A stretch of DNA of 64,000 nt. It comes from a virus. The translations under genes were made by a program, and so were the position numbers. The notes beneath the pieces are model-generated. The model was not told the DNA's origin, made no database searches, and was given only the letters and a program-made list of their open reading frames with translations. Every line of letters begins with the position of its first letter. The first letter of the stretch is position 1. The DNA is taken from the IMG/VR virus record IMGVR_UViG_3300045988_037604; one strand, written 5' to 3'. Positions 19,219-58,519 of the stretch are shown piece by piece.

Positions 19219-22200
19219 ATGAATGGTAGTTGTAATGTAGATGCAAAAAGATTTGCTGCTACTGAGACTGGAACCCGTCTCAAAGAAATGTGTGGAGTTG
19301 ATAGTACAAAATTTAATGCTATTACAGCTCTAGTTTATAATCCAAATACAGATAGTGGATTTACCAAAGAATTTGATGACTATCGTAAAACTGACGATAT
19401 AGCAAAAGATGCTATGGATTTCTATCAATCTAAACATTTTAATGTTGCTTATCAAACCACTAAATCTAAATATTCTGATATTATTCAAAGATTTGGTTAT
19501 GCTAATACTCAAGCTAAAGTTATGGCTAATAGAGTTATTGCTAATAATATTTTAACTTTTTATATTTCTGATGTTCTTAAAGGAAAAGATGATGAACATA
19601 AAGAAAATAGAGCTAATTATTATGCAAATAGAACTATTAAGTTTATTGCTAAACAATTGGCAACAAAAGTTATGAAAATTAGAAACATTCCTAGTACAAA
19701 AGATAATGTACTTAGAGTTGTAAACCAGCTTCTTGGTTATAATACTATTGAAGGCTTTGAATCTATAGATAAAGATTTTCAATCTCTTAGTGTTGAAGAT
19801 AGAAATGTTCTTGCTGTATTTAAAGAAATGCTTACTAATAAAGCTAAATTCTTTAATGCAATATATGCTGGAGACAGTCGTCTTGGACTTCTTAGAACAA
19901 AAGGAGATGATTCTGTTGATGAACGTTTTGATGAAGAAGGATTAACTGAAGATATATTTGTAAATGATGATAATCAAGATTTAGTAGATAGTTCTAATTT
20001 AGAATATGATGTTGATACTACTACTGCTAGATGGGACGATAATAGTGGTATGGGTAGTAATTTTATGAATGGTATTGATGATAGTGTTAAACTTATTATG
20101 TTTACTATTCCTAAACTTACATCTACTGCTAAAGTTGATGGTAAATATTCTTATGATAGAAGTAACCCTCTTGGTACAATAGATTTTATTGATGGTAAAA
20201 AAGTTATTGCTACTATTATTTCTCAATGTAGTAGAGATAATCTTAATTCTTTTATTAAATCTATTAAAGATATAGCTAATAATAACAAAGAAATGGCAGG
20301 TCTTATTAAACTTGCTGATACTCTTGAAGCTAATAAAGATTTTGCATATTCTTTCAGACGTCAATTCATTAGAAGTATTATGCCTAAAACTGAAACTAGA
20401 GTTGAATCTGATAGACAAGTTCATGCTATTTCTTCTAATAAAGAAGCTAATCGTTCTCAATCATTAAGATTTAGTTTTCAAAATAATATTAAACATACTT
20501 CTATTATTAATCTTGAATCTACTTCTTTAGATGCTGTAAATAAAATAAATGAATATATAAAACGTTATAATGTAGCAGTTAAAACTAATAATGAACTTCG
20601 CATACAAGAAATGTTTAGTAATATAACTTCTACTTTAACTAATGCTCTTCATGTTTATTATCCTGATATGGATAAAAATGCTGTAGCTGCATTTATTAGA
20701 AGTAATAAAATTAATGGACAAATTAATGTTATAGCAAATATAAACATTCTTATAAGTAATTTAAAAGATACTGCTTCAGCTGGAACACTTAATCAACAAT
20801 ATAAAAAAGAAAATGAAGAAGCTAAAAGAAAATACCAAATAGCATTTGAAGAAGATTCTAGTGCTAAATTAGTTATTCCTCATGAAAGTATTATTAGTAA
20901 ACAAAGTATAGCTAGTGCTAACGAACTTGCTAAACTTTTAGAACCATATTCTAGTATTGCTCTTCAATTTAATTCTCGTAATGTTCTTGGTAATCAAAGT
21001 TCTGATATTATAAATAGTTCTATGCTTACCAATCTTATGAATGCTCTTAATGGAACAGAAATGAGTACTGATGCTGAAGGAAAACTTTCTCCTGAAGCTT
21101 TAATTCAATATGGTAATTATAAATTCCAAGGTAATCAATATAATCTTAGTAATATTCTTATTGAACAAAGAGATGCTAATGGTAAAATTATTGTTTACGG
21201 TTTATTTAAAAAAGTAGGAGATAAATATGCTCCAACTGATTATGCTAAACAACTTATTAGCATTAGTTTGTTTAATGGAGCTGGCAATCCTAATACAGGA
21301 GAAAATGTTCTTTATTCAGGAATGAGTAAAGGAGATTATGTTTATAGTGGTTTTGCTAATTTCTTTAATACTGAAAAAGATTATGATGGTAGTACTAAAG
21401 AAGCTTTAAGTTTAGCTAATTATTTTATGCGTATCCCTTCTGATGCTCCTAAGAATTTTATTGTTAGAGCAGCTAGATATGCTTATCATGATACAAATTA
21501 TGGCGATTTATTTACTATAGAAAATAATGAAGAATTTGAAAATGCTATCACTGATGAATTAAACAATCTTCCTAAAACAGATAAAGTTCCTACAGAATCT
21601 CAACTTAAACAATTTATTAAAGTTGAATCTCGTGATGATTACAATAGAATGATTAGTGATTTACGTGCTACTAGAATTAATAGACGTAAAATAATGGATT
21701 ATCAAATACTTAAAGACCCTAATCATAAAGGTAGTTATAAAAGTGGCGATAATCTAACTATAGGATATGTTTATACAGATGAATTAGGTAATCAAGATAG
21801 ATATGTTCTTCAAGGTACAGCAGAATTTGATTCAGATAATAATATATATATTACAAATGCTAAACCTTATCATATTGGTAATGAATTTACATCTGATGTT
21901 CGTCAAAATCTTGTAGATAAAATTAGACGTGAAGCTAATCGTACAGGTAAAATAGGAGATGTAGTTATTAATAAACAAATTAATGTTAATCATCCTCTGT
22001 TCCAACAATATCGTAATGTTTTTATTCAAGAACTTACTGATATGGCACATAACATTAATCAATGGTTTGTAACAGACGCTAATGGTAAAATTCAAGAATG
22101 GCAAGAAGGAGAAAGTACAGACCATAAAGCTGGTGAACCTAAATTTAAACAAGGTTGGGGACTTGATGAAGAATCTGCTCGTAAAGCTTATGCTGTATAT

Positions 22201-25200
22201 GAAGTAGGTAAAGGACATAAACATTTTGTAGAATATAATGATAAAACTAAAGGTCTTACATTTACTGGTAGTTTATTTAGAGATGATAGATTTATTATAA
22301 CTAATGATGATGGTACTACTACAAATGTAGCACAAGATTTAATGGATAAATTATTCAGTTCTCTCTACGGGGGGGATAAAGATGCTTATATTCCTTTTAC
22401 ATCTAATGGCGACAAAGTTGAAGTTAATTTGACTGATGAACAAAACGAAGAAGTTACTAAGATGATTAGTGACTTTATAACTAGCTATGTCAATCAACAA
22501 GTTGAAAAGTTTGATGATTTTAAAAATCTTGATGTCGCAGGTCTTATTAATGACCAAAATGTAGCTGATTTTGTACTTAATACTAGACTTACTTATATTT
22601 CATTTAATGACTTGTTTGAAGGAGATACTAAATTTTATAAAGATACTCAAACTTTCTTGAAGCGTAGTAAGGAAAGTCAAGCTAGTGGTGTACCTTATGG
22701 TTTCTGTGATTATGTTAGTGATTATTCTAGTACGTCTGTTGCTGTTGAAGGAGCTTATCTTAATGATGGAGAAATTCAAAAAAGATTTGCTAATTTTAAA
22801 AATCCTCTAGATGTTAAACAAATGACTAAGTTTAGAGGTATAACTATTAAAAATACTGTTAGAACTTCTGAGCAATGTAAAGTAGATACAGAAGATGTTA
22901 CAGGTAAATTAACAGATAAAGATGGTAGTCTTGTTAAAGACCTTGTAAAAAATGCTGGACTTACAGTTGAACAAGCTAGAACTTTAATGAAAGGTTTTAT
23001 TAAAACTACTGTAAATGATGCTCAATCTTATATTACATTTGAAGAATGGATTCGTCGTGTAGCTGGTCGTGGTCAACTTGCTAAATATTTACCTCTTATT
23101 GAAAAGATTCAAAATGATGAACCTCTTAGTAGTGCTGATATTAAAGAATTTGTTCAAGTTCAAAAGAACTTTTATTATGACCAATATTTTGACCCTGTAA
23201 CTAAGAAATTTGTTCCTCGTCAAATTAAAAATGCTGAATTTGTTCTTGTTCCTAGATTTATTAAAGGTACTCAACTTGAACAAGTTTATAATCTTATGAA
23301 AGATAATCATATTGATCAACTTAATACTGAAGAAACTTCTAAAGCAGGTAAAGCAAGAGTTCTTGAAATATTTAATTCTAAAACAGGTGAAGTTACTCAA
23401 GAACATATTGATGATTTCAATGCTCATGCTGATGCTTATGCTGAATATTATGATTACAATCATCTTTATACCCAACAAGAAACTCCACAACATATGGATG
23501 CTGAGAATAAAGCTGGTATTCAAATTATGAAGAAAATTATTGATAATATCCCAGTTAATAGTCCTCTTTATGATAAAAAACAAGAGTTCTTTAGACTTTA
23601 TTCTGCTAATATTAAAGATAGTTTTAATACTCTTGCTGATGAAATTAATATTCCAAGAGACGAAAATGGCAATATTAAATTTAATGATGATGGTACTATT
23701 AGTGGCATAGATTATAAAGTATTCTTCTCCAAACTTAAAGAAGAATGTATGCGTCTTGGTCTTGATAGTAATATGATGGATTATGTAACTTTAGCTGAAC
23801 AAGCTATTAATCCTATGACTGGAAGACCTAATCCTAATATGCCTATGATTCTTAGTAATGTTATTACTAAGCTTGAAAGTGTTAGTCAATCAGTATTTAA
23901 TAGAAATATCACTCGTCAAAAACTTCCTGGTTTTCATGCTGCTCAAATTACTAATGTTGGTTTTAAAGCTACTAAAGACCAAGTAAGTTATTCTAAAGAA
24001 CTTCGTTATCATCCTGTAACTAAAGAACATCCTGAAGGAGAACGTTATATCGAAATAATGCTTCCTAAAAGTAATTTTAATTTTGCTAAAAATGAAGATG
24101 GTACATATAAAGACGTTGATGAAGTTAGAGATGAAAATGGTGAACTTGTAGGAGGTCTTTTAAAACAACTTCAAGATGCAAAACTTGATACTCTTATTGG
24201 TTATCGTATTCCAACTGAAGGTAAACAATCTGTTTGTGTAATGAAAGTAGTTGGATTTCTTGATGATGCTCAAGGTTCAACTATTGTAGTACCTGATGAT
24301 TGGGTTTCTCAAACTGGTTCTGACTTTGATATTGACTCTGTATATGGTATTCAATATAGTAGTTATATAGATAAGCATGGTAATATTCGTAAACAAAGTT
24401 ATTCTGAAGAACTTGATATTTATGATTATGCTAATTATATAAATAGACATCTTGAAAAAGCTGATAAAATTAAAGATAAATCAGTTAAAGCTGCTTTTGA
24501 TGCTCTTAACAAAGAAATAGATGAAGCTTTTGATAAATCTCGTAAGGAATTATCTGAAGAAGAAACTCAAGCTTATAATGCTTTATCTGATGAAACTAAA
24601 GAACTTGTAAAAACTGCTCATAATGTTTTTGAAACTCAAGCTGTAAGAAATAAAGAAACTGGTAAACTTACAAAAGATAGTTATCTTAAACAACTTCAAT
24701 TTGTAGCTGATTATATTCGTACTAATAAAACTAATCTTGACAATGCTGATGATAATTTTATTTCAGTACATGAAGATATAGTAGATGCTATTAGTAATGA
24801 ATATATAGATAAACGAATTGCTAAATCAGATAGAGTTAAGAAAATTCTTCAAGATAGAATTGATAGATTTAATAATAAAGCTAAAGAATTAGGTCTTATG
24901 ACTTATGAAGAGTTTTTACAACAAAGTCCTGAAGAAGCTAATACTCGTAATGCCAGAAATAATAAACTTCTTGATGATATGATTGATATTCTTGAATCTA
25001 ATGAATCTCTTGAAGAAAATCTTTCTCGTTCTAATTTTGATGATATTATTGCTGCTCGTGATAAAGTTATTAATCCTGTAGTTAAAGATATTCGTGAAGC
25101 TAGAAGTCCTTATGATTTTCTTAACCAAGCTGATTATCAAGAAGATGTTATGAGTGGAGCTAAACTTAAAGCATTTAGTGTTACTCGTGATACATTTGTG

Positions 25201-28200
25201 TCAGTATGTAACACTGTTAGACCAACTATTGATGATAAGAATGTTATCAATATAAATTATCATTATAAAGATGCTAAAGCTCTTAAAGAACTTATAAATA
25301 GATTTGGTAAATATAATGTTAAAGATTTAGGTAATAACAAATGTAGAATTACTCATACTAGAATTGGTTGGTCCGAAGATAATAAAAATGTAGACGGACG
25401 TATTCTTACTGCATATACTTCTCAAACTACTGCTCATATTCTTGATGCTGTTAAGGAAGGAGCTATACCTAATGTAAATGATTTTACTTTTGCTGTATAT
25501 AAAACTCTTCCCGATATTGGTAGTAATTATGATACTACTTGTGCATTTATTATGCAACCTGCTATTAGTAGAATTGTTGACGAATATAATGCAAATAAAT
25601 CTATTTATGCAGAAGAAAGTTCTAAACCTATTGAAAATGCTATTAAGAAATTAGCTATAGAACTTAATATAGGTGTAACAGAAGAAGATAGTGTTCAAAA
25701 AGCTATAGATAAAATTAATAGTGTATTTAAAACTAATTATAGTCTTACAGAAAACAATAATATTATTCTTGATTATGATGATTTAGCTGCAAGAATTAAT
25801 GAAGAAGATGGTCAAATTAACCCCCCCGTAGAGAGGTTGATGTTTGACCTCAATATGCTTTTTGCTTATAATGATATTAATAAACTTGCTCAAGGTATTA
25901 GTAGTTTAGCAAGAGTTTGTAATCCTGATAGATTTGGTGCTAAACAAACTATATTTGCAACTAATAAAGTATTTAGAGATATTGAAACTATTGTAAATGT
26001 AGATAATGCTAAACAATATAGTGTTCTTAATGTAGAAGATAAAAATGGTGATATTATCTCATTTCTTGAAGCTATTTATCCTGGACTTATCGTTGATAAC
26101 AATGGAATTAAGTCTTATGATTTACATCATTATATGACAGAGAGTAATGATAATGATTCTAAATATCGTTCACTTCATTGTTTCTTAAAATATGCTACTG
26201 CTACTTCTACAAGTATTAATAGTATGCTTTTTGATACACAATCTAATTTCTTTAAGAATATAGTTTATAGTCTTGAAGATACATTTAGTGACAATACTAG
26301 ACAAATTAGTGAAAAAGAATATGCTGATTTTCAACAATATATTCTTAGTGGAGTTTATAACAATACTCCTGCTATGCGATTATCTATTAAACCTATGTTT
26401 AATAAAGATGGTAAATTTACTCAATTTGGTTTAGATAATGAAACTGATGAAACTGCTGAACGTCAAAGAATATTTGGATATAATGCTTCTACTGATATTA
26501 AATTTGCAGTTAATGACATTATAAATCCTACACAAAAAGAAATAGAAGTATTTGCTAAACTTACTCCTGCTCAAAAAGTTGCTTGGATTCAAATGAATAC
26601 TGAAGATGCTGGTATATTTAGTCTTTGTAAAGTAAATCTATTTAATCAATATGAAGCTAGACAAACTGGTCAATCTAGACAAACTATTAGTTTTAAAGAT
26701 GATACAGTTGATGTAGAAACTGCATATATGATGTTTGACCAAGCTACTAATAGTGATAATCCTCTTATAAAACTTGCTGCAATAGATATGATTAAATATG
26801 CTTTTGTAGTTGAGAATTTTAAAATGAGAAGAAATGCTATTAATAAGTTTATTACTAATGATAGTCTTAAAGATGATAGTCTTTTTGGAGGAGTTAATTT
26901 AGTAAATCAAATACTTGAAGATTTTAATAATTTTGCTGGAACTTATAATGTAGCTGAAGATTATGTTAGAGCACATAGTGATGCTTCATTTATTTATCAT
27001 AAAACAGAAAGTAAAATTAAAAAAGGTAAGACATTTGTTAATGAACTAAGTACTAATAGAAAATCTAGAGACCTTCTTAGATTTGATTTATCTGATACTA
27101 CTGATTTAACTAATAGTATTGCTGAACTTCAAGGTGAACTTAATGTTGAAACTGATGAAGAAGAAAGAAAGAAGATTGCTAAAGATATAAAAGATTTAAC
27201 TGATAGACTTAATGTTCTTAAACGTGATAGAAAAAATGCTATAAAATATGGTATCATAACAGATTGTTCTACTAAAACATTACCTAATGATTTTAGAAGT
27301 AATAATTATGTAGAAATTAAAACTAAAAAGAGTAAAGGTAAAGATTATACTAGTATTCTTTATAAGATTCAATTTATTGGTACAACTGTTTATGCTTATC
27401 CTATCAATAAACTTGATGAAAATGAAACTTCAGCTGTAAGTCTTATTAAAGAAAATAATAAATTTAAACCTGAAGCTTTTTATTTTGAATATATTAATGA
27501 ACTTGAGAAAAATAATGGTGAAAATCTTGAATTAGAAGATTTAAATAATCTTGCTTCTCAATATAATCTTGGTATTAAATATAAGAAACTTCGTAATAAA
27601 ATAGTATTTGATATAAATCATCCTGATAAATATAATCAAGGTGCTGCTAGAGATGCTATTAATAAAATTATTGCTAAATATCCTTTATCTAATGGTAAAG
27701 AATTTAATATTCAAAGTATTTATCTTGATAGATATGTAGGATTTAATTTTGGTAATCAACAGCATATAGTAGGAACTTATATAGATGCTGAAAGTGGAAA
27801 TGAAATTACTATAGATACTGATTTTAAATTTAGAAAGTATTCTTCTAATGAAATAAGTCGTCTTGCTGCATTAGGAATAAATGTAGCACCTAATACTATA
27901 ATAGTTAAAGAAGTTCCTAAAGTTGAGAATAAAGGTGTTATAGTTGAAACTAATCAAATAAAACATTCTAGTATTCTTGATTATAGTATAGATGCTTATA
28001 GAGATATATCTCGTAGAGCAAACGAAGGAGATTATGAAGCTAGACGTCAAGTTAGAAAATTAGGAGAAAAAGGTTTTGAAGGTAAAAAAGCTCAATTTGG
28101 TAATGAAGAAGAAAGAGTTTATGGAGCTATAAATGATTATGTTAAAACTAAAGTTGCAGAAGTTCATACTAATTTAAATCAGTTCTTTGCTGATGAAGAT

Positions 28201-31200
28201 GGTCATTATCATTCTGTAGTTGAAGCTGAAACTATTGATTATATTAGAAACAATCCTATGGAACAAAGACGTTTCTTAAAAACACTTCTTGATGCTAGAG
28301 CTTTAATTACTAAATATGGAGATATTGTTACAGTTAAGGTTGATAAAGATAAACAATCAGATGAAACAATTAATTATGTTAAAGGCATTCAAGAAAGTAT
28401 TAAATCTCTTATTGATAGTTCTAAACTTGAACAAGCTGAAACATTGTTTGCTACAGATTATCTTGCTAAACTAAGTGATAATCCTATGATACAAAATAAT
28501 ATTATTAGTATATTTGATGGATTTCATTCTACTAGTTGGTTCGATGCTTGGGTTGGTGATTTACAAGATTCAGGTAATGCTTTTGTACAAGTAATTACTA
28601 AAAATGTAATGGCTGACATTAGAGCTAAAGAAATGCAAGCAATGAAACGTGTTGAAAGTTTTAATAAAGAACTTGATAAGATTTTTGCTGATGCTAAAAA
28701 AGATGGAGTTAATTTATCTTTTGATGATATAATTGATGCTGATGGAAAAAGTATTCGACCATATAGTAAAAAATTTGAATCAGATTATAAAGAAATATAT
28801 AAGGATTTTAAACAAGCAGAAGCTAATATAATAGAAAATCCTAAAGCTTACATTCTTGCTAAACACAAGTATGATAAATTCTTATTAGACCATGTTAATA
28901 GAAAATTTGTTGATGATTATTATAAAGAATTTTATGATAATGATGAAGAAATGATTTCTAAACATTTGCCTATATTTGAAGAATATACTAAACTTCGTGC
29001 TCAAGTATCAAAAATAAATAGTGGAAGAATTAATGGAGTTCTTGACCCTTCGGATGAAGATAAATTAAAAGAATTACAAAAGAAAATTCTTGAACTTCGT
29101 TCTACATTTGATTATGATAGAATGGAAGAAAAAGAATCTTTTTATGGTGGTTATCCTGGAGCAAAAGTTAATGATAAAGGCGAAGTAATTGAAATAACAG
29201 ATGAAAAGAAGTATAGACAAGCTCGTATTTCTAACTTTGTTGATTGTAAAGCTTTAGATGATTATTTGTCTAGAATAAATGAAATTAGAAATAAATATAA
29301 TGATAGTAAAATTAAAAAAGGTTTTGATGAACAATTAAAAAGAAATCTTGATATAGTTGAAACTGCTGAAGCTCGTGACCCTTATGGAAGACTTAGAGTT
29401 CCAATATCTCAACTTGAAGCAAATGAAGATTATAAAAAAGCTAAAGCTTGGTTAGCAAATAATGCTAAATGGACTGTAGACTCTGCAATTCAAGAAGAAA
29501 TTCATGAAGCTTATAAAGTTTTACAATATAAAGGTGATAGAAATTCAGCATATAAAGTTGCAGTTAAAAGACTTATTCAAAAAGGAGATTTACATTATGA
29601 TGAATATGGTAGAATAGATGGTTCTGTTTTTTCTGATGAAGACCAGCAAAAGATTAAAGATGAAGTAGAGAGAAAATATTATAATAACAAATATAGTGCA
29701 AATAGTGACAGAATATTAATAAGTAATGCTCCTGAAGATGACACTATATATCCTACTGAAATATATAGAAGAATGTCATCTAATGGTATTCCTAATGAAG
29801 AATATCAAAAGATTGTAAAGAAAATAAATGATATTCTCAAACCTTATTATGATGTTTCTACTAAGCACGTTGAAACTTCTCAAATGACTGAGGAAGATTT
29901 AAATAAACTTTATGATGTTTATCAACCTTTATTTGCTGGAGTTAAGAAAACTATTGAAGGAACTAATGGTAAATCTGTTGGTTGGTTTATTAAAAATTAT
30001 GTTGACTTAGATGCTTATAATGAAACTGCTTTTAATCTTGAAAGAGAAAGAGCTAAAGCTAAAGGAGAAAAATATTATAAAGCTTGGGAACGAGTTAATA
30101 TGATGAGTATTCCTAAAGTTGATGATAAGTATCAAGTAGTTACAGATAGTGAAGGAAATGTAGTTTATGATGAAACTAAACCTAAAGTTCCTAATAGATA
30201 TTTATATTCTGCTCTTAAAGTAGATATGGATAAATATTTAAAGAATAAGAGTAGTAAAAAAGCTACTGCACTTCGCCAAGAAATGGAAGATAAAACTAAA
30301 GCTTACAATACTATTCATAAATATCTTGAAACTGTAAATACTCCATATTATGAAGCTGAACTTAAAAAACAAAGAGCTAAAGGTGATAAAGAATTTAAAG
30401 AATGGTATGATAGAAATCATGTTTATAATCCTTTTACTCATGTTTACGAACCTACTACAATATGGAGAAAAACTCAAGTTATTCCTAAACATGATAATGG
30501 TACTTGGACTGCTGGTTATGCTCAAACAGAACTCGCTCCTAAACCTGCTTATAAAAATAATAATTATAAAGAAGGATTAGGTAATATAGCTAATTATAAG
30601 AAGACTTCTGATACTACTTATGATACAGATAAAATTCTTAATAAACATCAACAAAGACTTCTTGATTATATAAATTCTGTTCTTACAAGTCTTGCTAAAA
30701 CTGAAAGTGCTAAACGCTATATAGCTCAAGGTTATATGCCTATGATGGCTAAAGGTAAAGAACATGATGCTAAATGGTGGGCTGCTCAATTCTTAGAGTT
30801 CTTAGGTTATAGTGATAAACTTCAGAATGGTCGTGACCCATTTTATCATATAGATTATGCTGATGATAAAACTATAGATATGCCTATGCTTATGCAACAA
30901 CTTCATAATAAAGATTCTGTTAATATAGAAAATATTAAAAAGACTAAACCTAACAGAATATCTTATAAAGATGAAGAAGAATATAATAAAGCAATGACTG
31001 CATATAATGCTCGACTAGAAGAAGCTGAAAAGAAAAATAAAGAAATTCATGAAGCTCTTATCAATAGAGATTACCGTACTGTTCTTAGTAATTTTATAAC
31101 TCAAGCTGCTCATTTCAATGCTATTCAAGATAATAAATATATGCTGTTCTATGGAAAAGAAATGATTGATAGAATGGAAGTATATGAAAAGAATATTGGT

Positions 31201-33060
31201 TGGGCTAATCTTAAACGAGATGGTCAAAGAGGAGCTAAAGATGAAATTAATTATCTTAAACAAAAAGATACTAGACTTCAAGGTCAATATGAAAATTGGA
31301 TAAGAAGATTAATTTATAATCAATTTAAAGAAAGTAATGCTAATTATACTAAAGTTGCTAGTGTTATGCAAGCATTTACATCTGCCAAATTTATGATGCT
31401 TAATATAACTGGTGGTATTGGTAACGTTACTGTAGGAGAATCTTCTATTGCTGGAGAATATATAGCTAAAGAGTTCTTTGATAAATCTGATTATCTTAAA
31501 GGTAAAGAAATGTGGACAAATGCAGCAATTAGTTTTGTTAGAGGTGTTTATAGTAAAGATTCTACAACTCTTGCTGATGCTATATGCAAATTCTTTAATG
31601 TTGTTGATTTTGACCAATTAGCAGGAATTAGTGATGGTAATAAACTTGATGCTGGTACTGCTTTTGAAAAACTTAGAAACTTCCTTTATTCTCCTAATGC
31701 TATGGGTGAACATTTTATGCAAAATGGTGCTATGTTTAGTATGATGTTTGCTAATAGACTTGTACCTGTTGCAGATAATGTAAACAAAGGAAGAATAGCA
31801 TATCGTGCAATGAATAGATATGAATATATAGCTAAATGTCATGAAGATGCTATGAAACAAATTCTTGATGGTACTGAACTTGAAGAAGAATTTAATAACT
31901 TTATTTCTTCTATAAAAGAAGATGCTAATAAACTTAAAGAATATGTTTTTGGTCGTAGAGATTTTGTTACTGAATTTGCATATACAAGACTTACTGGTAA
32001 AAATTCTGATAAAAAGAAACAATTTGTTGCTAAGAAGAAAGAATTAGAAAAGAAAGCAGAAATAGAATTTAAGAAGAATTCAACAATAATGGAGCAATTA
32101 GACCTTAAAGATGGTAAACTTGCTTTTAAAGATGGAAGTATTCTTGCTGAACTTGATGCTAATTCTCAAGACAAAGAAGTTTCTGATGCTTATAGATTAC
32201 TTGGAGAATTTAAAGGAAAAGTTATATCAGTTAATAAAGAAATTCATGGTGTATATGATAGACTTGGTGCTGCTCAAGTCGAAAAGCATTGGTGGGGAAG
32301 TCTTGCTATGCAATATCATAAGCATATGTATCCTGGTATTCTTAAACATTTTAGAAGACAAGGTTATTTTAATGAAGAAAGAGGAGCAATGACTATTGGT
32401 TGTGGACCTGCTTTACTTGATTTTCTTTCTCTTCCTATTCGTAAAATGAAAGCAGATAGAGAACTTAATGATAAACAAGTTGAAGCACTTGAAAGTCTTC
32501 AAACTTTATTTAAAGGTTATGTTGATTTAGCTACTAACTTTAAGACTAATTGGAATATACTTCCTCGTTATCAAAGAGCTGCTATACTTAGAGCGATGGG
32601 TAATGCTTGTGGTGCAGTAGCTGCTATAGCTGTAGCTCTTGCAACAAGATGTATATGGGACAATAAAGAATTAGAAGATAGTACTACTGCTAATCTTCTT
32701 CTTTATGAAGCAGATAGTCTTGCTAGTCAAGCTATGATGTATACTCCTCCATTTATTGTTACTGAAGCTAAAAAACTTTATAGTTCTCCTATTGCTGCTC
32801 AAACTATGCCTAGTGATTTAATTAAAGCTATGGGTATTATAGCAGAAGGATTAATCGAAGGAGATGATTATAATTGGGATTATACTAGTGGACGTTATGC
32901 TAAAGAAAATAAACTTTTTGTACTTACAACTAGACAAATTCCTATTTATCGTGCTTATAGTAATATAGCTGGTCTTGATAAGAGTAATTCATATTATAAA
33001 CTTGGAAAGAATGTTTTAGGTTTTATTCCTGTTGATGATATAGCTAATACTATACGATAA
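19219..33060 (+). CDS. giant virion-packaged RNA polymerase-containing protein (4613 aa)
   Basis: Uninterrupted 4613-codon ORF. GYRIPTEGKQS...VVPDDWVSQTGSDFDIDSVYG contains the D-x-D-x-D metal-binding loop (DFDID, nt 24322-24336). This loop is typical of the two-barrel RNAPs of crAss-like phages (phi14:2-type virion RNAP) and RNAi-type RdRPs. A hydrophobic segment lies near the C-terminus (RAMGNACGAVAAIAVALATRCIW, about nt 32590-32655). Confidence 0.8.
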   Translation: MNGSCNVDAKRFAATETGTRLKEMCGVDSTKFNAITALVYNPNTDSGFTKEFDDYRKTDDIAKDAMDFYQSKHFNVAYQTTKSKYSDIIQRFGYANTQAKVMANRVIANNILTFYISDVLKGKDDEHKENRANYYANRTIKFIAKQLATKVMKIRNIPSTKDNVLRVVNQLLGYNTIEGFESIDKDFQSLSVEDRNVLAVFKEMLTNKAKFFNAIYAGDSRLGLLRTKGDDSVDERFDEEGLTEDIFVNDDNQDLVDSSNLEYDVDTTTARWDDNSGMGSNFMNGIDDSVKLIMFTIPKLTSTAKVDGKYSYDRSNPLGTIDFIDGKKVIATIISQCSRDNLNSFIKSIKDIANNNKEMAGLIKLADTLEANKDFAYSFRRQFIRSIMPKTETRVESDRQVHAISSNKEANRSQSLRFSFQNNIKHTSIINLESTSLDAVNKINEYIKRYNVAVKTNNELRIQEMFSNITSTLTNALHVYYPDMDKNAVAAFIRSNKINGQINVIANINILISNLKDTASAGTLNQQYKKENEEAKRKYQIAFEEDSSAKLVIPHESIISKQSIASANELAKLLEPYSSIALQFNSRNVLGNQSSDIINSSMLTNLMNALNGTEMSTDAEGKLSPEALIQYGNYKFQGNQYNLSNILIEQRDANGKIIVYGLFKKVGDKYAPTDYAKQLISISLFNGAGNPNTGENVLYSGMSKGDYVYSGFANFFNTEKDYDGSTKEALSLANYFMRIPSDAPKNFIVRAARYAYHDTNYGDLFTIENNEEFENAITDELNNLPKTDKVPTESQLKQFIKVESRDDYNRMISDLRATRINRRKIMDYQILKDPNHKGSYKSGDNLTIGYVYTDELGNQDRYVLQGTAEFDSDNNIYITNAKPYHIGNEFTSDVRQNLVDKIRREANRTGKIGDVVINKQINVNHPLFQQYRNVFIQELTDMAHNINQWFVTDANGKIQEWQEGESTDHKAGEPKFKQGWGLDEESARKAYAVYEVGKGHKHFVEYNDKTKGLTFTGSLFRDDRFIITNDDGTTTNVAQDLMDKLFSSLYGGDKDAYIPFTSNGDKVEVNLTDEQNEEVTKMISDFITSYVNQQVEKFDDFKNLDVAGLINDQNVADFVLNTRLTYISFNDLFEGDTKFYKDTQTFLKRSKESQASGVPYGFCDYVSDYSSTSVAVEGAYLNDGEIQKRFANFKNPLDVKQMTKFRGITIKNTVRTSEQCKVDTEDVTGKLTDKDGSLVKDLVKNAGLTVEQARTLMKGFIKTTVNDAQSYITFEEWIRRVAGRGQLAKYLPLIEKIQNDEPLSSADIKEFVQVQKNFYYDQYFDPVTKKFVPRQIKNAEFVLVPRFIKGTQLEQVYNLMKDNHIDQLNTEETSKAGKARVLEIFNSKTGEVTQEHIDDFNAHADAYAEYYDYNHLYTQQETPQHMDAENKAGIQIMKKIIDNIPVNSPLYDKKQEFFRLYSANIKDSFNTLADEINIPRDENGNIKFNDDGTISGIDYKVFFSKLKEECMRLGLDSNMMDYVTLAEQAINPMTGRPNPNMPMILSNVITKLESVSQSVFNRNITRQKLPGFHAAQITNVGFKATKDQVSYSKELRYHPVTKEHPEGERYIEIMLPKSNFNFAKNEDGTYKDVDEVRDENGELVGGLLKQLQDAKLDTLIGYRIPTEGKQSVCVMKVVGFLDDAQGSTIVVPDDWVSQTGSDFDIDSVYGIQYSSYIDKHGNIRKQSYSEELDIYDYANYINRHLEKADKIKDKSVKAAFDALNKEIDEAFDKSRKELSEEETQAYNALSDETKELVKTAHNVFETQAVRNKETGKLTKDSYLKQLQFVADYIRTNKTNLDNADDNFISVHEDIVDAISNEYIDKRIAKSDRVKKILQDRIDRFNNKAKELGLMTYEEFLQQSPEEANTRNARNNKLLDDMIDILESNESLEENLSRSNFDDIIAARDKVINPVVKDIREARSPYDFLNQADYQEDVMSGAKLKAFSVTRDTFVSVCNTVRPTIDDKNVININYHYKDAKALKELINRFGKYNVKDLGNNKCRITHTRIGWSEDNKNVDGRILTAYTSQTTAHILDAVKEGAIPNVNDFTFAVYKTLPDIGSNYDTTCAFIMQPAISRIVDEYNANKSIYAEESSKPIENAIKKLAIELNIGVTEEDSVQKAIDKINSVFKTNYSLTENNNIILDYDDLAARINEEDGQINPPVERLMFDLNMLFAYNDINKLAQGISSLARVCNPDRFGAKQTIFATNKVFRDIETIVNVDNAKQYSVLNVEDKNGDIISFLEAIYPGLIVDNNGIKSYDLHHYMTESNDNDSKYRSLHCFLKYATATSTSINSMLFDTQSNFFKNIVYSLEDTFSDNTRQISEKEYADFQQYILSGVYNNTPAMRLSIKPMFNKDGKFTQFGLDNETDETAERQRIFGYNASTDIKFAVNDIINPTQKEIEVFAKLTPAQKVAWIQMNTEDAGIFSLCKVNLFNQYEARQTGQSRQTISFKDDTVDVETAYMMFDQATNSDNPLIKLAAIDMIKYAFVVENFKMRRNAINKFITNDSLKDDSLFGGVNLVNQILEDFNNFAGTYNVAEDYVRAHSDASFIYHKTESKIKKGKTFVNELSTNRKSRDLLRFDLSDTTDLTNSIAELQGELNVETDEEERKKIAKDIKDLTDRLNVLKRDRKNAIKYGIITDCSTKTLPNDFRSNNYVEIKTKKSKGKDYTSILYKIQFIGTTVYAYPINKLDENETSAVSLIKENNKFKPEAFYFEYINELEKNNGENLELEDLNNLASQYNLGIKYKKLRNKIVFDINHPDKYNQGAARDAINKIIAKYPLSNGKEFNIQSIYLDRYVGFNFGNQQHIVGTYIDAESGNEITIDTDFKFRKYSSNEISRLAALGINVAPNTIIVKEVPKVENKGVIVETNQIKHSSILDYSIDAYRDISRRANEGDYEARRQVRKLGEKGFEGKKAQFGNEEERVYGAINDYVKTKVAEVHTNLNQFFADEDGHYHSVVEAETIDYIRNNPMEQRRFLKTLLDARALITKYGDIVTVKVDKDKQSDETINYVKGIQESIKSLIDSSKLEQAETLFATDYLAKLSDNPMIQNNIISIFDGFHSTSWFDAWVGDLQDSGNAFVQVITKNVMADIRAKEMQAMKRVESFNKELDKIFADAKKDGVNLSFDDIIDADGKSIRPYSKKFESDYKEIYKDFKQAEANIIENPKAYILAKHKYDKFLLDHVNRKFVDDYYKEFYDNDEEMISKHLPIFEEYTKLRAQVSKINSGRINGVLDPSDEDKLKELQKKILELRSTFDYDRMEEKESFYGGYPGAKVNDKGEVIEITDEKKYRQARISNFVDCKALDDYLSRINEIRNKYNDSKIKKGFDEQLKRNLDIVETAEARDPYGRLRVPISQLEANEDYKKAKAWLANNAKWTVDSAIQEEIHEAYKVLQYKGDRNSAYKVAVKRLIQKGDLHYDEYGRIDGSVFSDEDQQKIKDEVERKYYNNKYSANSDRILISNAPEDDTIYPTEIYRRMSSNGIPNEEYQKIVKKINDILKPYYDVSTKHVETSQMTEEDLNKLYDVYQPLFAGVKKTIEGTNGKSVGWFIKNYVDLDAYNETAFNLERERAKAKGEKYYKAWERVNMMSIPKVDDKYQVVTDSEGNVVYDETKPKVPNRYLYSALKVDMDKYLKNKSSKKATALRQEMEDKTKAYNTIHKYLETVNTPYYEAELKKQRAKGDKEFKEWYDRNHVYNPFTHVYEPTTIWRKTQVIPKHDNGTWTAGYAQTELAPKPAYKNNNYKEGLGNIANYKKTSDTTYDTDKILNKHQQRLLDYINSVLTSLAKTESAKRYIAQGYMPMMAKGKEHDAKWWAAQFLEFLGYSDKLQNGRDPFYHIDYADDKTIDMPMLMQQLHNKDSVNIENIKKTKPNRISYKDEEEYNKAMTAYNARLEEAEKKNKEIHEALINRDYRTVLSNFITQAAHFNAIQDNKYMLFYGKEMIDRMEVYEKNIGWANLKRDGQRGAKDEINYLKQKDTRLQGQYENWIRRLIYNQFKESNANYTKVASVMQAFTSAKFMMLNITGGIGNVTVGESSIAGEYIAKEFFDKSDYLKGKEMWTNAAISFVRGVYSKDSTTLADAICKFFNVVDFDQLAGISDGNKLDAGTAFEKLRNFLYSPNAMGEHFMQNGAMFSMMFANRLVPVADNVNKGRIAYRAMNRYEYIAKCHEDAMKQILDGTELEEEFNNFISSIKEDANKLKEYVFGRRDFVTEFAYTRLTGKNSDKKKQFVAKKKELEKKAEIEFKKNSTIMEQLDLKDGKLAFKDGSILAELDANSQDKEVSDAYRLLGEFKGKVISVNKEIHGVYDRLGAAQVEKHWWGSLAMQYHKHMYPGILKHFRRQGYFNEERGAMTIGCGPALLDFLSLPIRKMKADRELNDKQVEALESLQTLFKGYVDLATNFKTNWNILPRYQRAAILRAMGNACGAVAAIAVALATRCIWDNKELEDSTTANLLLYEADSLASQAMMYTPPFIVTEAKKLYSSPIAAQTMPSDLIKAMGIIAEGLIEGDDYNWDYTSGRYAKENKLFVLTTRQIPIYRAYSNIAGLDKSNSYYKLGKNVLGFIPVDDIANTIR
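22364..22377 (+). repeat. G7-core motif copy S5 (forward)
   Basis: ttctcTCTACGGGGGGGATaaa, inside the RNAP gene, read TAC-GGG-GGG-GAT (LYGGD). Confidence 0.85.
25819..25832 (-). repeat. G7-core motif copy S6 (reverse)
   Basis: The plus strand reads attAACCCCCCCGTAGAgagg, inside the RNAP gene (INPPVER). Confidence 0.9.
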
Positions 33061-33072
33061 CCCGCCCGTAGG
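33059..33072 (-). repeat. motif copy S7, interrupted-G variant (reverse)
   Basis: The plus strand reads gatAACCCGCCCGTAGGaag and overlaps the TAA stop of the RNAP gene. Its reverse complement is cttCCTACGGGCGGGTTATc. Confidence 0.7.
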
Positions 33073-33105
33073 AAGTATTGATATTAAATATTAGTTAAAC
33101 TCTAA

Positions 33106-33153
33106 ATTACTATTGCTTAGATAGGTAGAAATGCTTATCTTTGCAATAGTAAT
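33106..33153 (+). other. long imperfect hairpin between the RNAP gene and the tRNA (terminator or RNA-processing element)
   Basis: Outer 11-bp stem 33106-33116 / 33143-33153. Inner 7-bp stem 33119-33125 / 33134-33140, separated by a U.U internal loop. 8-nt apical loop and no clear T-run. Confidence 0.5.
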
Positions 33154-33231: not shown

Positions 33232-33318
33232 CTAATAGTAAAATTTAAGTTGTTACTTATAATGTTAGGTTAAGTGGTTAAAGATAGGCTGTTTTGAATG
33301 GTAATTATCCCATGTTCG

Positions 33319-33354
33319 TCCCAAGGTTATCGTGATGATAATCTTGGGATTTTT
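33319..33354 (+). terminator. rho-independent terminator downstream of the tRNA
   Basis: A 13-bp stem (tcccaaggttatc 33319-33331 / gataatcttggga 33337-33349, one G.U pair), 5-nt loop, then TTTTT at 33350-33354. Confidence 0.75.
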
Positions 33355-35253: not shown

Positions 35254-35733
35254 TTAATTGTTTTCTCTTTGTCTTTGTTCTAAAATATCTTTTCTAAGTT
35301 TTCTAATACTACCTCTATAAAGATAATTATGATTTATAACATAAGTATTCTTAGGAAGAATATTATTTGGTATTTTATCACATAGTCTTCCTATAACATC
35401 AAGTTCAACTAATCTTTTAATAGCTTTACTAATATGACTTTTATCACAATTATATTGTTTAGCAATAATAGAAGCATTTAAAGATAAGTGATTAACATTA
35501 TAAGGAATATTATCTACGATATATCGTACAACAATACCTACATACTTAGATTCTTCACTAAGTATTGTAACTAGACTATTATCTATAAGCACCTTATCTT
35601 CCATATAATAAATAGTTTTATTGTACTTATTTCCACTATCATCTTCATCTTTAATTCTAAGACCTTTTACAGATAGAGGATAGCTATAATCAATACTATC
35701 TTTAGCAAGTTTATTAATAACTTTATCATTCAT
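35254..35733 (-). CDS. putative winged-helix DNA-binding protein (regulator or initiator)
   Basis: The ORF-track start at 35817 is TTG, followed by an odd hydrophobic leader. ATG at 35733 (MNDKVINKLAKD...) is preferred. LNASIIAKQYNCDKSHISKAIKRLVELDVIGRL resembles an HTH recognition helix plus wing of MarR/Rrf2/RepA-type proteins. Confidence 0.45.
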   Translation of the reverse strand: MNDKVINKLAKDSIDYSYPLSVKGLRIKDEDDSGNKYNKTIYYMEDKVLIDNSLVTILSEESKYVGIVVRYIVDNIPYNVNHLSLNASIIAKQYNCDKSHISKAIKRLVELDVIGRLCDKIPNNILPKNTYVINHNYLYRGSIRKLRKDILEQRQRENN

Positions 35734-35866
35734 ATCTTTATCAATTTTATTAGCAACAATACAAAGATAATAAAAAGTAGCAGATTTTAGCCACATTTTT
35801 ATAAAAAATAGCATCAACCTGCCACTTATTATGTGCTAACTAATTGATATTCAGATAGTTAAGTAG

Positions 35867-35897: not shown

Positions 35898-36056
35898 TTA
35901 CTGATATAACTTATCTGCACTACAAACATACTCATTATCTTTAAAACTAGCAACATTATCAATAGAATAATTACTATAATAAAGAAAGTTTAATAATTCA
36001 GCCTCTCTACGGGGGGTTTCTAGTTCATCTAGTACTTCTAAAACTTCTAATGACAT
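35898..36056 (-). CDS. possible small ORF (52 aa) containing motif copy S8
   Basis: Hand-translated as MSLEVLEVLDELETPRREAELLNFLYYSNYSIDNVASFKDNEYVCSADKLYQ, from ATG 36056-36054 to stop TAA (plus tta 35898-35900). Below the ORF-track size cutoff. Helical-looking sequence. Confidence 0.3.
   Translation of the reverse strand: MSLEVLEVLDELETPRREAELLNFLYYSNYSIDNVASFKDNEYVCSADKLYQ
36006..36018 (+). repeat. motif copy S8 (forward, G6)
   Basis: gcctcTCTACGGGGGGTTtct in the 35.8-36.1 kb spacer. On the minus strand it lies in the candidate 52-aa ORF, read ACC-CCC-CGT-AGA (TPRR). Confidence 0.8.
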
Positions 36057-36086
36057 TATTAGACATATTAGTACTAAGATTAATAT

Positions 36087-36100
36087 AGCCTGCCCGTAGG
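36087..36100 (-). repeat. motif copy S9, interrupted-G variant (reverse)
   Basis: The plus strand reads AGCCTGCCCGTAGGgag; its reverse complement is ctcCCTACGGGCAGGCTat. It lies 81 nt from S8 in inverted orientation. Confidence 0.6.
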
Positions 36101-36123
36101 GAGACTTATTTATTGGCTTATAA

Positions 36124-36402
36124 TCAACTCAATTGTTTACTTACATTATTAATCCATTTTTTAGCTTCATCTTCATTTGTAAATACAAGATTTTCAGAAA
36201 CATAAACTGTAGTTGCATTATCAAATAATTGTATTTCATAAGCTATAGTTTGATAATTAGCTGTTTTTGTAAGTTGAATTTGAATTATTACACCATAAGA
36301 AAATTCAGCTTTAACATAGTCAAATAATAAAACTTCATTACCAATATAATGTTTAGGAATTGTTATTCCGTTACCATCATTATTATTAAAACTAACTTGC
36401 AT
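36124..36402 (-). CDS. hypothetical protein (92 aa)
   Basis: ORF-track ORF with an 11-nt overlap with the upstream gene. Confidence 0.7.
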   Translation of the reverse strand: MQVSFNNNDGNGITIPKHYIGNEVLLFDYVKAEFSYGVIIQIQLTKTANYQTIAYEIQLFDNATTVYVSENLVFTNEDEAKKWINNVSKQLS

Positions 36403-43501: not shown

Positions 43502-43633
43502 TTATAAGTTTATAAACTTTAAAAATATAGACATCTTGAATAACAAATCAATTATTATCAAGAAGATAAATATTATTGGAAGAATTATATATATAAAACA
43601 TCCAATATTATCTGTTTTATTTTCTTTATTCAT
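43502..43633 (-). CDS. possible small transmembrane protein (43 aa)
   Basis: Hand-translated as MNKENKTDNIGCFIYIILPIIFIFLIIIDLLFKMSIFLKFINL, with one clear hydrophobic helix. The stop lies 10 nt before the next ATG. Confidence 0.35.
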   Translation of the reverse strand: MNKENKTDNIGCFIYIILPIIFIFLIIIDLLFKMSIFLKFINL

Positions 43634-43783
43634 AACATTTTATTCAGTACAATTATAATTATTCATTTTATTTAATATTTCAAATTCTTATTTGTTCACA
43701 AATATAATCATTTCTGATTAATTATATTACAGACATAATAAAACCGCTCACGTAAAAGAAAAACTGCATAAATGCGAATATTT

Positions 43784-43797
43784 CCTACGGGGCGGTT
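43784..43797 (+). repeat. motif copy S10, interrupted-G variant (forward)
   Basis: atatttCCTACGGGGCGGTTATa, intergenic, 6 nt from the stop of gene 43806..44156. Confidence 0.7.
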
Positions 43798-43805
43798 ATA
43801 TTGAT

Positions 43806-44156
43806 TTAATGAAATCTATAGACTTCACCATCTTCTTGAGAAGAATCAAGTATAAGATTAATATTTATATCTTTACTTATTCCTTTAAAACAATTATCAT
43901 ATACAGAACCTAAATTATATTTAAGTCGATTATAATTATCCTTAATAGTCTTAGCATAAGGTCTATCAGGAATAATATTATCAGAAGTAATAAGATAAAA
44001 TTCTTCTTTATCAGTATTAGGATTATATCTTTTACCAAAAGCATAATAAGTTCTATATTTGATTTGCTTGCTAACTATACGTTTATTATTATAGTCAAGC
44101 CAAGTCTTTTTTTTATCTATTTTATTATCTACTTTATCATAAGCTGCGAGATTCAT
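43806..44156 (-). CDS. hypothetical protein (116 aa)
   Basis: ORF-track ORF. Confidence 0.65.
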   Translation of the reverse strand: MNLAAYDKVDNKIDKKKTWLDYNNKRIVSKQIKYRTYYAFGKRYNPNTDKEEFYLITSDNIIPDRPYAKTIKDNYNRLKYNLGSVYDNCFKGISKDININLILDSSQEDGEVYRFH

Positions 44157-44159
44157 AGT

Positions 44160-44588
44160 TTAATCATTATAAGTTTGAGTACAAAAATTAATATCATCAT
44201 CATAGATATTAAACTCATCAAGATTAATTACATAGCCCATATTATCTTCAGGAACAAATATTCCCAATTGAAGAACACCAACATTAATTTTAGAAGTAAC
44301 ATTAGCTGGTTTTTCAGATATAGATAAATCAAGTAATAATGAAATTATAGTCATTTTAGTAATAACACCTATATGTTTTTTAGGAATATATGTATTTCCA
44401 TAAGTGTTAATACATCTTTCTTGATTAGTTGGAACATAATGAATTTTAGAACCTACTCTAAGACCAGAATGTTTATTAATTATTTCTCTTATAGAGAAAT
44501 TAATATTATCTTCTGTTTCTCCATTAATTCTCATTTGCTGTTCTTTAATATAAGCTTCAGCAATACCTTCTAAAAGACCTTCAATCAT
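44160..44588 (-). CDS. hypothetical protein (142 aa)
   Basis: ORF-track ORF. Confidence 0.65.
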   Translation of the reverse strand: MIEGLLEGIAEAYIKEQQMRINGETEDNINFSIREIINKHSGLRVGSKIHYVPTNQERCINTYGNTYIPKKHIGVITKMTIISLLLDLSISEKPANVTSKINVGVLQLGIFVPEDNMGYVINLDEFNIYDDDINFCTQTYND

Positions 44589-46271: not shown

Positions 46272-46727
46272 TCATCTAGTTTTAAATATTAAAACTCTAT
46301 CAGGTTTACCTAATACTCCATAAGTATAACGACAAACTTCTGCTATATTACTACATTCACAACTTCTATATCTTTTAATAGGACTTCTACAAGTATGAGT
46401 TTTTAAATCATAATCTATAGGAATATGTACTACTTTATTAAAATGTATAAGTTCTTGTAACTGATAATAATCATCAGAGTTTATATTAAAATCTATATGA
46501 CCATAACAAATAACATTACCTCTACCATTAGGAATATTAAAAGTTTTGTCATTTCTAGTTATTTTTATAGCTTCTCCTTTATCTAATTTAATTTCCTCTT
46601 TTTCTGTTATATATGTCATTACGATGTCAATACCATCACGTTCAGTACGGCAAATCAAAGTTTGATAGCCTTTCATAATAGGCATCGGAATTACATAGAT
46701 TTTCTTTTCTGTATCGTAGTTCGACAT
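46272..46727 (-). CDS. hypothetical protein (151 aa); start uncertain
   Basis: ORF-track ORF. The annotated start overlaps the primase 3' end by 86 nt. In-frame ATGs at 46685 and 46676 still overlap. Confidence 0.55.
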   Translation of the reverse strand: MSNYDTEKKIYVIPMPIMKGYQTLICRTERDGIDIVMTYITEKEEIKLDKGEAIKITRNDKTFNIPNGRGNVICYGHIDFNINSDDYYQLQELIHFNKVVHIPIDYDLKTHTCRSPIKRYRSCECSNIAEVCRYTYGVLGKPDRVLIFKTR

Positions 46728-47871: not shown

Positions 47872-47880
47872 ATTATACTT

Positions 47881-58422: not shown

Positions 58423-58519
58423 AACTATTTTAATTTATTTATTAATATTAGTAGTTTGACTCGGTTTCGCACCATAAGCTGTAGTATAAGCTGCACTTAG
58501 TCAAACTTAAAGTGAATTA

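Follow-up and report, generated by a model that had tools for sequence, protein, structure and literature searches.

What marks the boundaries between gene blocks in a 64,000-nt stretch of viral DNA, IMG/VR record IMGVR_UViG_3300045988_037604 (this whole stretch is called the window below)? Four sites in its spacers, at 33059–33075, 36087–36102, 43784–43799 and 62962–62977, lie at or shortly after stop codons and carry a short motif around CTACGGG in which the run of G residues is interrupted, while copies of the motif inside open reading frames (ORFs) have an unbroken run of six or seven (G6–G7). The original prediction took the interrupted form to be confined to gene-block boundaries, to differ from the G7 form, and to fit a terminator, processing site or promoter function. 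Here, we report that the four sites are real and non-random, and that they are the spacer subtype of a dispersed, evenly spaced, strand-alternating and positionally conserved DNA element.

The public genomes closest to the window are those of crAss-like phages of the Intestiviridae/Obtuvirinae (cr8_1: ~75% nucleotide identity, and 73% for the DNA polymerase protein), which places it among the crAss-like Intestiviridae. The + strand carries its genes up to 33060, and the − strand those from 33.7 kb onward. The last + strand gene is a 4613-amino-acid (aa) ORF (19219..33060, TAA stop at 33058–33060) that the original prediction named as the virion RNA polymerase (RNAP); its equivalent in crAssphage bears the annotation of an RNAP catalytic-subunit fusion.

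Motif copies in the window

The window has 27% G+C. The heptamer CTACGGG occurs in it 13 times, compared with 0.25 expected, and none of 100 shuffled sequences reached this number. A weight matrix built from these 13 copies adds two more in a scan, giving 15 copies in the window (in 1 of 20 shuffles, the matrix yielded any match above 12 bits). For the four boundary sites, the coordinates, sequences and distances to the stop codons were confirmed base by base, as were the units downstream: a tRNA-Gln gene (33161–33232) 3′ of the RNAP ORF, a 43-aa hydrophobic ORF (43502..43633) and a 46-aa acidic ORF (62679..62819).

ORFs contain ten of the 15 copies, and approximately half or more of those in each relative checked. 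Sense copies occur in all three reading frames, and copies antisense to their gene make up approximately half of the total; we therefore think that the constraint on ORF copies acts at the level of DNA.

Distribution and conservation in the Intestiviridae

In the genomes compared, the motif typifies the Intestiviridae, a crAss-like family. The consensus of 132 pooled copies is a six-base pyrimidine run, ACGGGG, two variable bases and a G (Y6-ACGGGG-NN-G), and the conserved length is ~16–25 bases depending on the lineage (roughly 20). There are 19–31 copies per genome: 27 in cr8_1 (acatACCTTTTACGGGG[G/C]GGCTAGA), 19 each in ctcc615 and cr271_1, 19 in 50 kb of cr3_1, and 31 in the prototypical crAssphage (tCCATCCTCYACGGGG[G/A]GT). 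The versions change in concert from lineage to lineage, reading CTTCTACGGGGGGGTT in the window, CCTTTTACGGGGSGGCTAGA in cr8_1, CTTCTACGGGGGAGCT in both ctcc615 and cr271_1, and CCATCCTCYACGGGGRGT in crAssphage. G7 is not conserved as such: nearly all copies in ctcc615 and cr271_1 read G5-A/T-G. Such concerted, lineage-specific versions point to a co-evolving factor, and argue for a reader encoded by the phage rather than by the host.

Exact-string and keyword searches of the literature found no published description of the motif. The string matches to CCTACGGG were sequences of the 16S 341F primer, because the core CCTACGGG-GGC (at 36087–36102 and in other copies) resembles the universal 16S rRNA 341F primer region CCTACGGGNGGCWGCAG, a likeness that we judge to be coincidence. 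The text of Yutin 2021 does not mention repeats, promoters, terminators or hairpins, and exact-match scans for the interrupted 15–16-mers in IMG/VR gave mostly chance matches in unrelated contigs. In crAss001 (Steigviridae), the ACGGGG motif was not found in the 50 kb examined. As a separate observation, a 9-mer, CTCCAGAAG, occurs 14 times in the first 50 kb of crAss001, where ~0.15 would be expected; its copies lie on either strand, within genes as well as between them (for example, at 1580, 6485, 8022, 8664 and 13791). A recurring APEG peptide may account for some of these, or a different family may here have a dispersed site of an analogous kind.

The positions of the sites are conserved as well. 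Both copies in the RNAP gene occupy the same alignment columns in three genera, and 66 of 80 loci retain the antisense copy inside the gene for an SNF2-like helicase, at aa identities as low as ~29%. The original prediction expected its sites to recur at the equivalent boundaries of relatives, and the copy at the RNAP stop codon does: it is found, antisense and 5–9 nt after the stop, in 17 of 21 IMG/VR relatives. A convergent pair 2.4–3.1 kb beyond it, formed in the window by the copies at 36001–36021 and 36085–36105, is retained in most of these relatives and also in cr8_1, ctcc615 and cr271_1. CpG-to-TpG changes have eroded the RNAP-stop copy in two relatives, to CTACAGGCAGG (locus L088, ~5050–5070) and CTACAGGGGAAC (locus L090, ~5055–5075); one of the two is very close to the window.

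Besides being conserved, the sites are regularly laid out. The gaps between copies have a coefficient of variation of 0.42–0.51, where copies placed at random would give ~0.93 (p ≤ 0.001 for the four complete genomes and 0.013 for the window), and the largest gap is 7–11 kb where 14–19 kb would be expected. The strand ratio is ~1:1, and the strands of neighbouring copies alternate above chance in four of five genomes, with 22 of 26 neighbouring pairs in cr8_1 (p = 0.0005); these spacing and alternation tests are not independent across genomes, because many orthologous sites are common to them. Between crAssphage and the Obtuvirinae, many site positions differ.

Interrupted and unbroken copies

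In the window, the G run is interrupted in all five boundary copies and in none of the ten ORF copies, which are all G6–G7; the G6 copy at 36007 is scored as an ORF copy solely through a 52-aa ORF that two relatives conserve. By the count of the original prediction, the split is 4/4 intergenic versus 0/9 ORF copies (Fisher p = 0.0014), and the two copies added by the weight matrix, one G7 in an ORF and one interrupted at a boundary, obey it. The intergenic copies of that count also have CCTAC (3/4) and a YTAT 3′ flank (4/4, versus 1/9 ORF copies). Confinement to boundaries thus holds in the window but not as a general rule, since ORF copies of relatives are also interrupted. In cr8_1, the interrupted form accounts for 9/13 intergenic and 7/14 ORF copies (not significant), and in crAssphage for 9/11 and 7/20 (p = 0.016); the link to intergenic position is weaker in the relatives and has exceptions, with a combined Cochran–Mantel–Haenszel (CMH) p of 0.007 when the window is left out. 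At orthologous sites, the variant type is mostly kept in close relatives, where two ORF sites are interrupted.

Two simple causes of the split were set aside. Orientation is tied to the variant in cr8_1 only (p = 0.006, where the tie is stronger than that to location), and not in the window or in crAssphage. Coding constraint alone fails to explain G7 in ORFs, because GGGCGGG would be synonymous in the NPPVE frame. The interrupted sites are also not an element apart from the G7 form: two thirds of the window copies are in ORFs, in both orientations and at positions shared across genera, so that the interrupted form is best described as a subtype of one family. All copies and associated features are listed below; among the genes named there, ORF 46642..47913 corresponds to the annotated primase gene of cr8_1, ORF 54582..55151 is the orthologue of its annotated uracil-DNA glycosylase gene, and ORF 50896..52308 is the SNF2-like helicase gene.

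Table. Motif copies and associated features in the window. Sense and antisense refer to the gene named.
Feature	Positions	Strand	Sequence	Context
G7 copy	6566..6586	+		in ORF 6218..8833, sense
G7 copy	7857..7877	−		in ORF 6218..8833, antisense; peptide NPPVE
G7 copy	15585..15605	+		in ORF 11978..19129, sense
G7 copy	17910..17930	−		in ORF 11978..19129, antisense
G7 copy	22359..22379	+		in RNAP ORF, sense; peptide LYGG; same alignment column in three genera
G7 copy	25817..25837	−		in RNAP ORF, antisense; same alignment column in three genera
Boundary copy	33057..33077	−	CCTACGGGCGGGTTAT; 33059–33075 = AACCCGCCCGTAGGAAG	overlaps RNAP stop, antisense to RNAP gene
G6 copy	36001..36021	+		within 52-aa ORF 35898..36056, antisense to ORF
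Boundary copy	36085..36105	−	CCTACGGGCAGGCTAT; 36087–36102 = TCCCTACGGGCAGGCT on − strand	~21 nt from stop of 36124..36402; sense to − strand genes
Decayed inverted partner of 43779–43799 copy	43742..43757	−	CTTTTACGTGAGCGGTT on − strand	
Boundary copy	43779..43799	+	43784–43799 = CCTACGGGGCGGTTAT	6 nt after stop of 43806..44156, antisense; identical in two relatives
G7 copy (weight matrix)	47027..47047	−	TTTACGGGGGGGCT	in ORF 46642..47913 (primase), sense; cr8_1 orthologue at 83139
G7 copy	51792..51812	+		in SNF2-like helicase ORF 50896..52308, antisense; peptide NPPVE
G7 copy	54947..54967	−		in ORF 54582..55151 (uracil-DNA glycosylase), sense
Degenerate boundary copy	58521..58541	−	CCTCTATGGGGGAGCTTA; A-interrupted CTCTATGGGGGAGCTTAA	16 bits; overlaps stop of ORF 58520..58855, sense
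Boundary copy	62957..62977	+	62962–62977 = TCTACGGGCGGGTTAT	33 nt after stop of 63011..63445, antisense
−7 box	33136..33143	+	TATCTTTG	upstream of tRNA-Gln; conserved in close relatives
−7 box	43699..43706	−	TATATTTG	beyond hairpin; upstream of 43-aa hydrophobic ORF
−7 box	58502..58509	−	TAAGTTTG	11 nt beyond degenerate boundary copy
−7 box	62940..62947	−	TATCTTTG	~15 nt beyond motif core; upstream of 46-aa acidic ORF
Canonical terminator	33318..33350	+		downstream of tRNA-Gln; mirror terminator 33397–33428 (−)
RepL-like winged-helix protein gene	35254..35817	−		directly downstream of convergent pair 36001–36105

Promoters and terminators at the boundaries

The five boundary copies each lie 0–33 nt after a stop codon, at real boundaries of transcription units. 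On the gene strand, a −7 box of the Bacteroidetes type (TAnnTTTG) is present in four of the five boundary spacers, the exception being 36057–36123; it lies 11–22 nt (58502–58509 and 62940–62947) or about 60–80 nt (33136–33143 and 43699–43706) beyond the copy, with 11–85 nt as the span over all four. Near the 131 copies overall, −7 boxes are not enriched (42 versus 44 expected), and the motif itself contains neither the −7 box nor a −33 TTTG. In two of the predicted host-type promoters, at 33136–33149 (+) and 62934–62947 (−), an identical 14-mer (TATCTTTGCAATAG) was seen.

Canonical hairpin-plus-T terminators are absent from the boundary spacers, except for an imperfect pair at 43.7 kb: none was found at 33059–33075, 43400–43900 or 62600–63100, where only the pair at 43742–43799 folds. 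Six such terminators occur elsewhere, all lacking a motif copy (8847–8882, 33318–33350, 33397–33428, 34014–34043, 47890–47922 and 62156–62185); those of the late block, 33318–33350 (+) and 33397–33428 (−), are further on, past the tRNA gene. This complementarity of motif and terminator, together with the order stop codon, motif, promoter, is the best evidence for the function that the original prediction had in mind. A terminator, processing or promoter role is possible for the boundary subtype, given the unit boundaries, the −7 boxes and the missing terminators. It cannot explain the whole family, because most copies are in ORFs, in both orientations and at positions shared across genera; in addition, promoter elements are lacking in the motif, and three of the four sites have no hairpin and no U tract.

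The fourth site does fold. The imperfect hairpin at 43742–43797 that the original prediction described is real (−20.7 kcal/mol on the transcript strand, followed by UUUUAUUAU (TTTTATTAT)). A decayed, inverted motif copy forms its 5′ arm, and cr8_1 shows this arrangement too. Intrinsic (Rho-independent) terminators resemble the motif in their position right after stop codons, and the 43742–43799 pair folds and then runs into a U-rich tail; unlike them, single motif copies lack a stem and a U tract, and the phage has textbook terminators elsewhere.

Predicted structure of single copies

A hairpin on the G-rich strand of the motif is possible. Folding predicts a 6–9-bp stem in which the pyrimidine run pairs with the G run around a UACG loop, with −3 to −11 kcal/mol for G-run copies on the G strand and ~0 to −4 on the C-rich strand. 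The 5′ arm is nearly all pyrimidine in the 132 copies (131/132 and 129/132 at two positions that were free in the search pattern), and in the sense boundary copies at 36093 and 58529, an A interruption is offset by a U in the 5′ arm. At variable positions, pairing is about what base composition predicts, bar one lineage-level change. Longer folds gave z-scores that were not significant, and among Rfam families at the gathering score, only the tRNA-Gln matched in the window and 50 kb of crAssphage. A long-range RNA duplex between sense and antisense copies was rejected by inspection, as the variant combinations would give G–G or C–A mismatches.

Two further structural features were noted. The 52-aa ORF (35898–36056, −), which begins MSLEVLEVLDELETPRRE and is conserved in two relatives, has the antisense motif copy at about codons 13–18 and a sense copy ~30 nt upstream of its start codon, and a duplex of the two could enclose the start codon (−34.9 kcal/mol predicted). 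Some copies in relatives, two of them within ORFs, are followed by a GC-rich extension of 30–45 nt with small hairpins, including mini-hairpins of the GCGAAGC type (crAssphage, loci L028/L029: 28077, 28174, 44953, 58727, 93667 and 95866; cr8_1: 62564, at ~12564 of locus L002). The ideas of a tRNA-like or RNase P substrate and of GCGAAGC mini-hairpins were dropped, as such extensions are limited to crAssphage and a single cr8_1 copy, and none is present in the window.

Links to replication and recombination genes

The RepL-like protein of the window is highly divergent; tblastn missed the cr8_1 genes, which a small profile recovered. There are two of them in cr8_1 (locus L001, 369–944; locus L002, 13367–13981), as in crAssphage, where motif pairs precede both RepL genes. 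One of these motif pairs lies at the same place as the crAssphage origin predicted by OriFinder (bioRxiv 10.1101/2024.03.20.585998). As a RepL binding site, the motif would be attractive for the pairs; this was rejected for the motif in general, as ctcc615 and cr271_1 carry it without a detectable RepL homologue.

The copies in the helicase and uracil-DNA glycosylase genes (51792–51812 and 54947–54967) flank the family B DNA polymerase gene on its two sides in all complete Obtuvirinae genomes examined and in the majority of related loci. The polymerase is of family B in all 78 loci that keep the upstream region (2 of 80 are truncated), so that they offer no swap with which to compare the idea of an exchange of polymerase cassettes. 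Invertible segments were discarded, with no long reverse-strand ORFs between paired copies and no inversion in 15 related loci aligned to the window. RecT- and Gam-like proteins are encoded by these phages according to annotation. Elsewhere, ORF 6218..8833 (an 871-aa protein) has a hypervariable segment at ~6830–8063: alignments to several relatives (82–97% identity on both sides) break at ~6812–6832 and restart at ~8063. This segment lies roughly between two motif copies, offset by ~200–250 nt from them.

A possible site for a phage-encoded factor

Our leading, though tentative, reading is that the motif would be a genome-wide cis site for a phage-encoded factor of DNA metabolism, such as a nickase, primase or loader. 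We infer the nature of this factor, and the process it would serve, from the family, distribution and conservation of the sites. The copies would be polar recognition sites for a co-evolving, sequence-specific phage factor that requires one site per strand every few kilobases, and they would be placed in spacers if these are available, and within an ORF where genes are too long to offer one. In its most concrete versions, the factor would nick in a strand-specific manner, as in T5, phiKMV and tf, or the sites would be strand-specific signals for priming or loading; the G-rich strand could form the small Y-run/UACG/G-run hairpin when single-stranded. Candidate binders among the phage proteins would be the RepL-like protein (35254..35817), an HNH-like protein (44160..44588), the primase, IHF-like proteins and the virion RNAP. 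In ORFs, G6–G7 would plausibly be held by the purging of frameshifting length changes and by fixed Gly-Gly or Pro-Pro codons, while in spacers the middle of the G run might be free to vary, or be tuned differently.

Known phage nick sites offer the closest parallel for the first version. Those of T5/BF23, phiKMV-like phages and Pseudomonas phage tf are all on one strand, number from several to ~14 copies per genome, lie in and between genes at similar positions in relatives, and follow short consensus sequences (tf, TACT/RTGMC; phiKMV, CGACxxxxxCCTA/CTCCGG) (PMC3517423). The motif resembles them as a short, multi-copy consensus with positions conserved among relatives, and differs in its strand alternation, its even spacing and its higher copy number (19–31). 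For the priming version, single-strand initiation (ssi) signals (ssiA/ssiB of RSF1010, G4-type) and the hairpin promoters of the N4 virion RNAP are comparable: these are small hairpins that work on one strand when single-stranded, with opposed pairs at an origin. Motif pairs likewise adjoin RepL-like genes, and a hairpin on the G strand is possible; unlike such signals, which have 2–3 copies at one locus, the motif is dispersed throughout the genome, and its hairpin would consist largely of G–T/G–U pairs with covariation close to what composition gives.

Oriented, over-represented motifs that lie in ORFs in several frames and both orientations, fairly evenly, are also familiar from cells, namely the DNA uptake sequences (DUS) of Neisseria, the uptake signal sequences (USS) of Pasteurellaceae, and Chi; inverted pairs in spacers double as terminator hairpins. 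The motif shares with these its orientation, over-representation, even spacing and presence in both ORFs and spacers. It differs in that they are cellular and read by the host, whereas the motif has a greater length, is that of a phage family and changes in concert by lineage; the phages that carry it also have genes annotated as the nuclease inhibitor Gam.

Several observations weigh against a site of DNA metabolism. All known phage nick systems use one strand, while the strands of the motif alternate. Copies are enriched approximately five-fold or more in the intergenic 6% of the window, and the order of stop codon, motif and promoter at the boundary copies is not predicted by a purely replicative site. 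Folding is poor for the three antisense boundary copies (−1.8 to −3.0 kcal/mol), and the covariation of the hairpin is weak and confounded by phylogeny. The decay of the RNAP-stop copy in two relatives means that individual sites are dispensable, and no RepL homologue was detected in ctcc615 and cr271_1, which have the motif.

Alternative explanations

The main rival, in our view rather unlikely, keeps closest to the original prediction: the interrupted intergenic subtype would be a factor-dependent, hairpin-independent terminator, insulator or RNA 3′-end or processing signal, acting either as a roadblock, polar and bound to DNA, or via the C-rich RNA that antisense copies encode, and parting one unit from the promoter of the next. 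The G-run copies in ORFs would then be weaker, silent or differently used versions. This would account for the position of the copies 0–33 nt after stops, the −7 boxes in four of five spacers, the complementary placement of motif and canonical terminators, the traits of the subtype (CCTAC, interrupted run, YTAT flank), its intergenic bias in relatives (CMH p = 0.007 without the window), the retention of the RNAP-stop copy in 17 of 21 relatives, and the inverted pairs that form hairpins followed by U-rich tails. It sits poorly with the ten of 15 window copies in ORFs, some of them antisense in the middle of essential genes and at positions kept across genera, as a terminator inside an essential ORF would give truncated mRNAs. 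Relatives, moreover, have interrupted copies in ORFs, two of the five boundary copies are sense, single copies have neither a hairpin nor a U tract, the copies as a whole show no enrichment of −7 boxes nearby, and even spacing and strand alternation are left unexplained. The hairpin could instead act in RNA, with the transcribed G strand folding on a UACG (UNCG-type) tetraloop and stabilising or punctuating mRNAs, much as C(UUCG)G hairpins occur in intercistronic regions of T4. The predicted stems of 6–9 bp, the near-pure pyrimidine arm, in which C/T interchange is neutral opposite G, and the U residues that match the A interruptions at 36093 and 58529 fit such a role. We nevertheless consider it improbable: all known transcription is antisense to approximately half of the copies, the RNA of the C strand has almost no structure, pairing at variable positions is close to what composition alone gives, and neither the z-scores of longer folds nor Rfam lend it support.

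Two other explanations appear less probable again. A promoter for the phage's own RNAP, whether of the T7 type, starting in the G run, or of the N4 type, in which a small hairpin forms on a single-stranded template, would suit a long, highly conserved motif that is followed by a G run, and the sense boundary copies are ~40–100 nt upstream of the start codon of the next ORF. Furthermore, the crAss-like virion RNAP is active in vitro on single-stranded or denatured DNA alone: gp66 of phi14:2 accepted no other template, and a motif for early promoters was not reported (bioRxiv 10.1101/2020.03.07.982082). T7-like promoters would all be co-oriented and upstream of units, whereas about half of the motif copies are antisense and most are in ORFs. 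Such antisense copies would give transcripts converging on sense copies in the same gene; copies are spread across late virion genes as well as replication genes, and three of the four reported sites face away from the downstream unit. No less improbable is an origin in recombination or selfish DNA, in which the copies would be conserved linkers for modular exchange among co-infecting phages, or relics of a mobile element kept uniform by gene conversion. The convergent pair around the family B polymerase gene in Obtuvirinae, the RecT- and Gam-like proteins and the concerted change per lineage are in line with this, and Yutin et al. reportedly described switches of DNA polymerase type in this group in 2021. 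The 15 related loci aligned to the window show no inversion or breakpoint at copies, the variable segment of ORF 6218..8833 lies ~200–250 nt off the copies, all 78 loci have one polymerase type, and positions kept down to 29% identity speak against recent mobility. Of known mobile or extragenic repeats, repetitive extragenic palindromic (REP) sequences and bacterial interspersed mosaic elements (BIMEs) are similar in being dispersed, short, alternating in orientation, with orientation-linked subtypes, and located after stop codons; unlike these or miniature inverted-repeat transposable elements (MITEs), which are palindromic and extragenic, the motif units are non-palindromic and mostly inside ORFs.

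Returning to the possible site for a phage-encoded factor, a more specific and more doubtful proposal would place both kinds of copies in a genome-wide 'punctuation' system. In it, ~20–30 polar sites in spacers and essential genes would be read by a co-evolving factor that might, for instance, nick both strands in a programmed way or start second-strand synthesis, and the interrupted subtype would also serve as a hairpin-free signal at unit boundaries. We know of no phage system with evenly spaced, alternating-strand polar sites of such architecture.

Implications for crAss-like phages

The crAss-like phages are dominant viruses of the human gut, and crAssphage is the human gut phage of greatest abundance. 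To our knowledge, their cis-acting DNA signals, including origins, packaging signals and the promoters and terminators of the virion RNAP, have hardly been described. The motif offers a handle on such signals: it is family-wide, overrides codon choice in essential genes, is spaced like the marks on a ruler and has separable subtypes. The four boundary sites are best studied jointly with the copies inside ORFs, and in the few cultured members of the family the motif supplies direct targets for assays of nicks, RNA ends and protein binding. It could also act as a family signature with which to find and orient Intestiviridae genomes in metagenomes.

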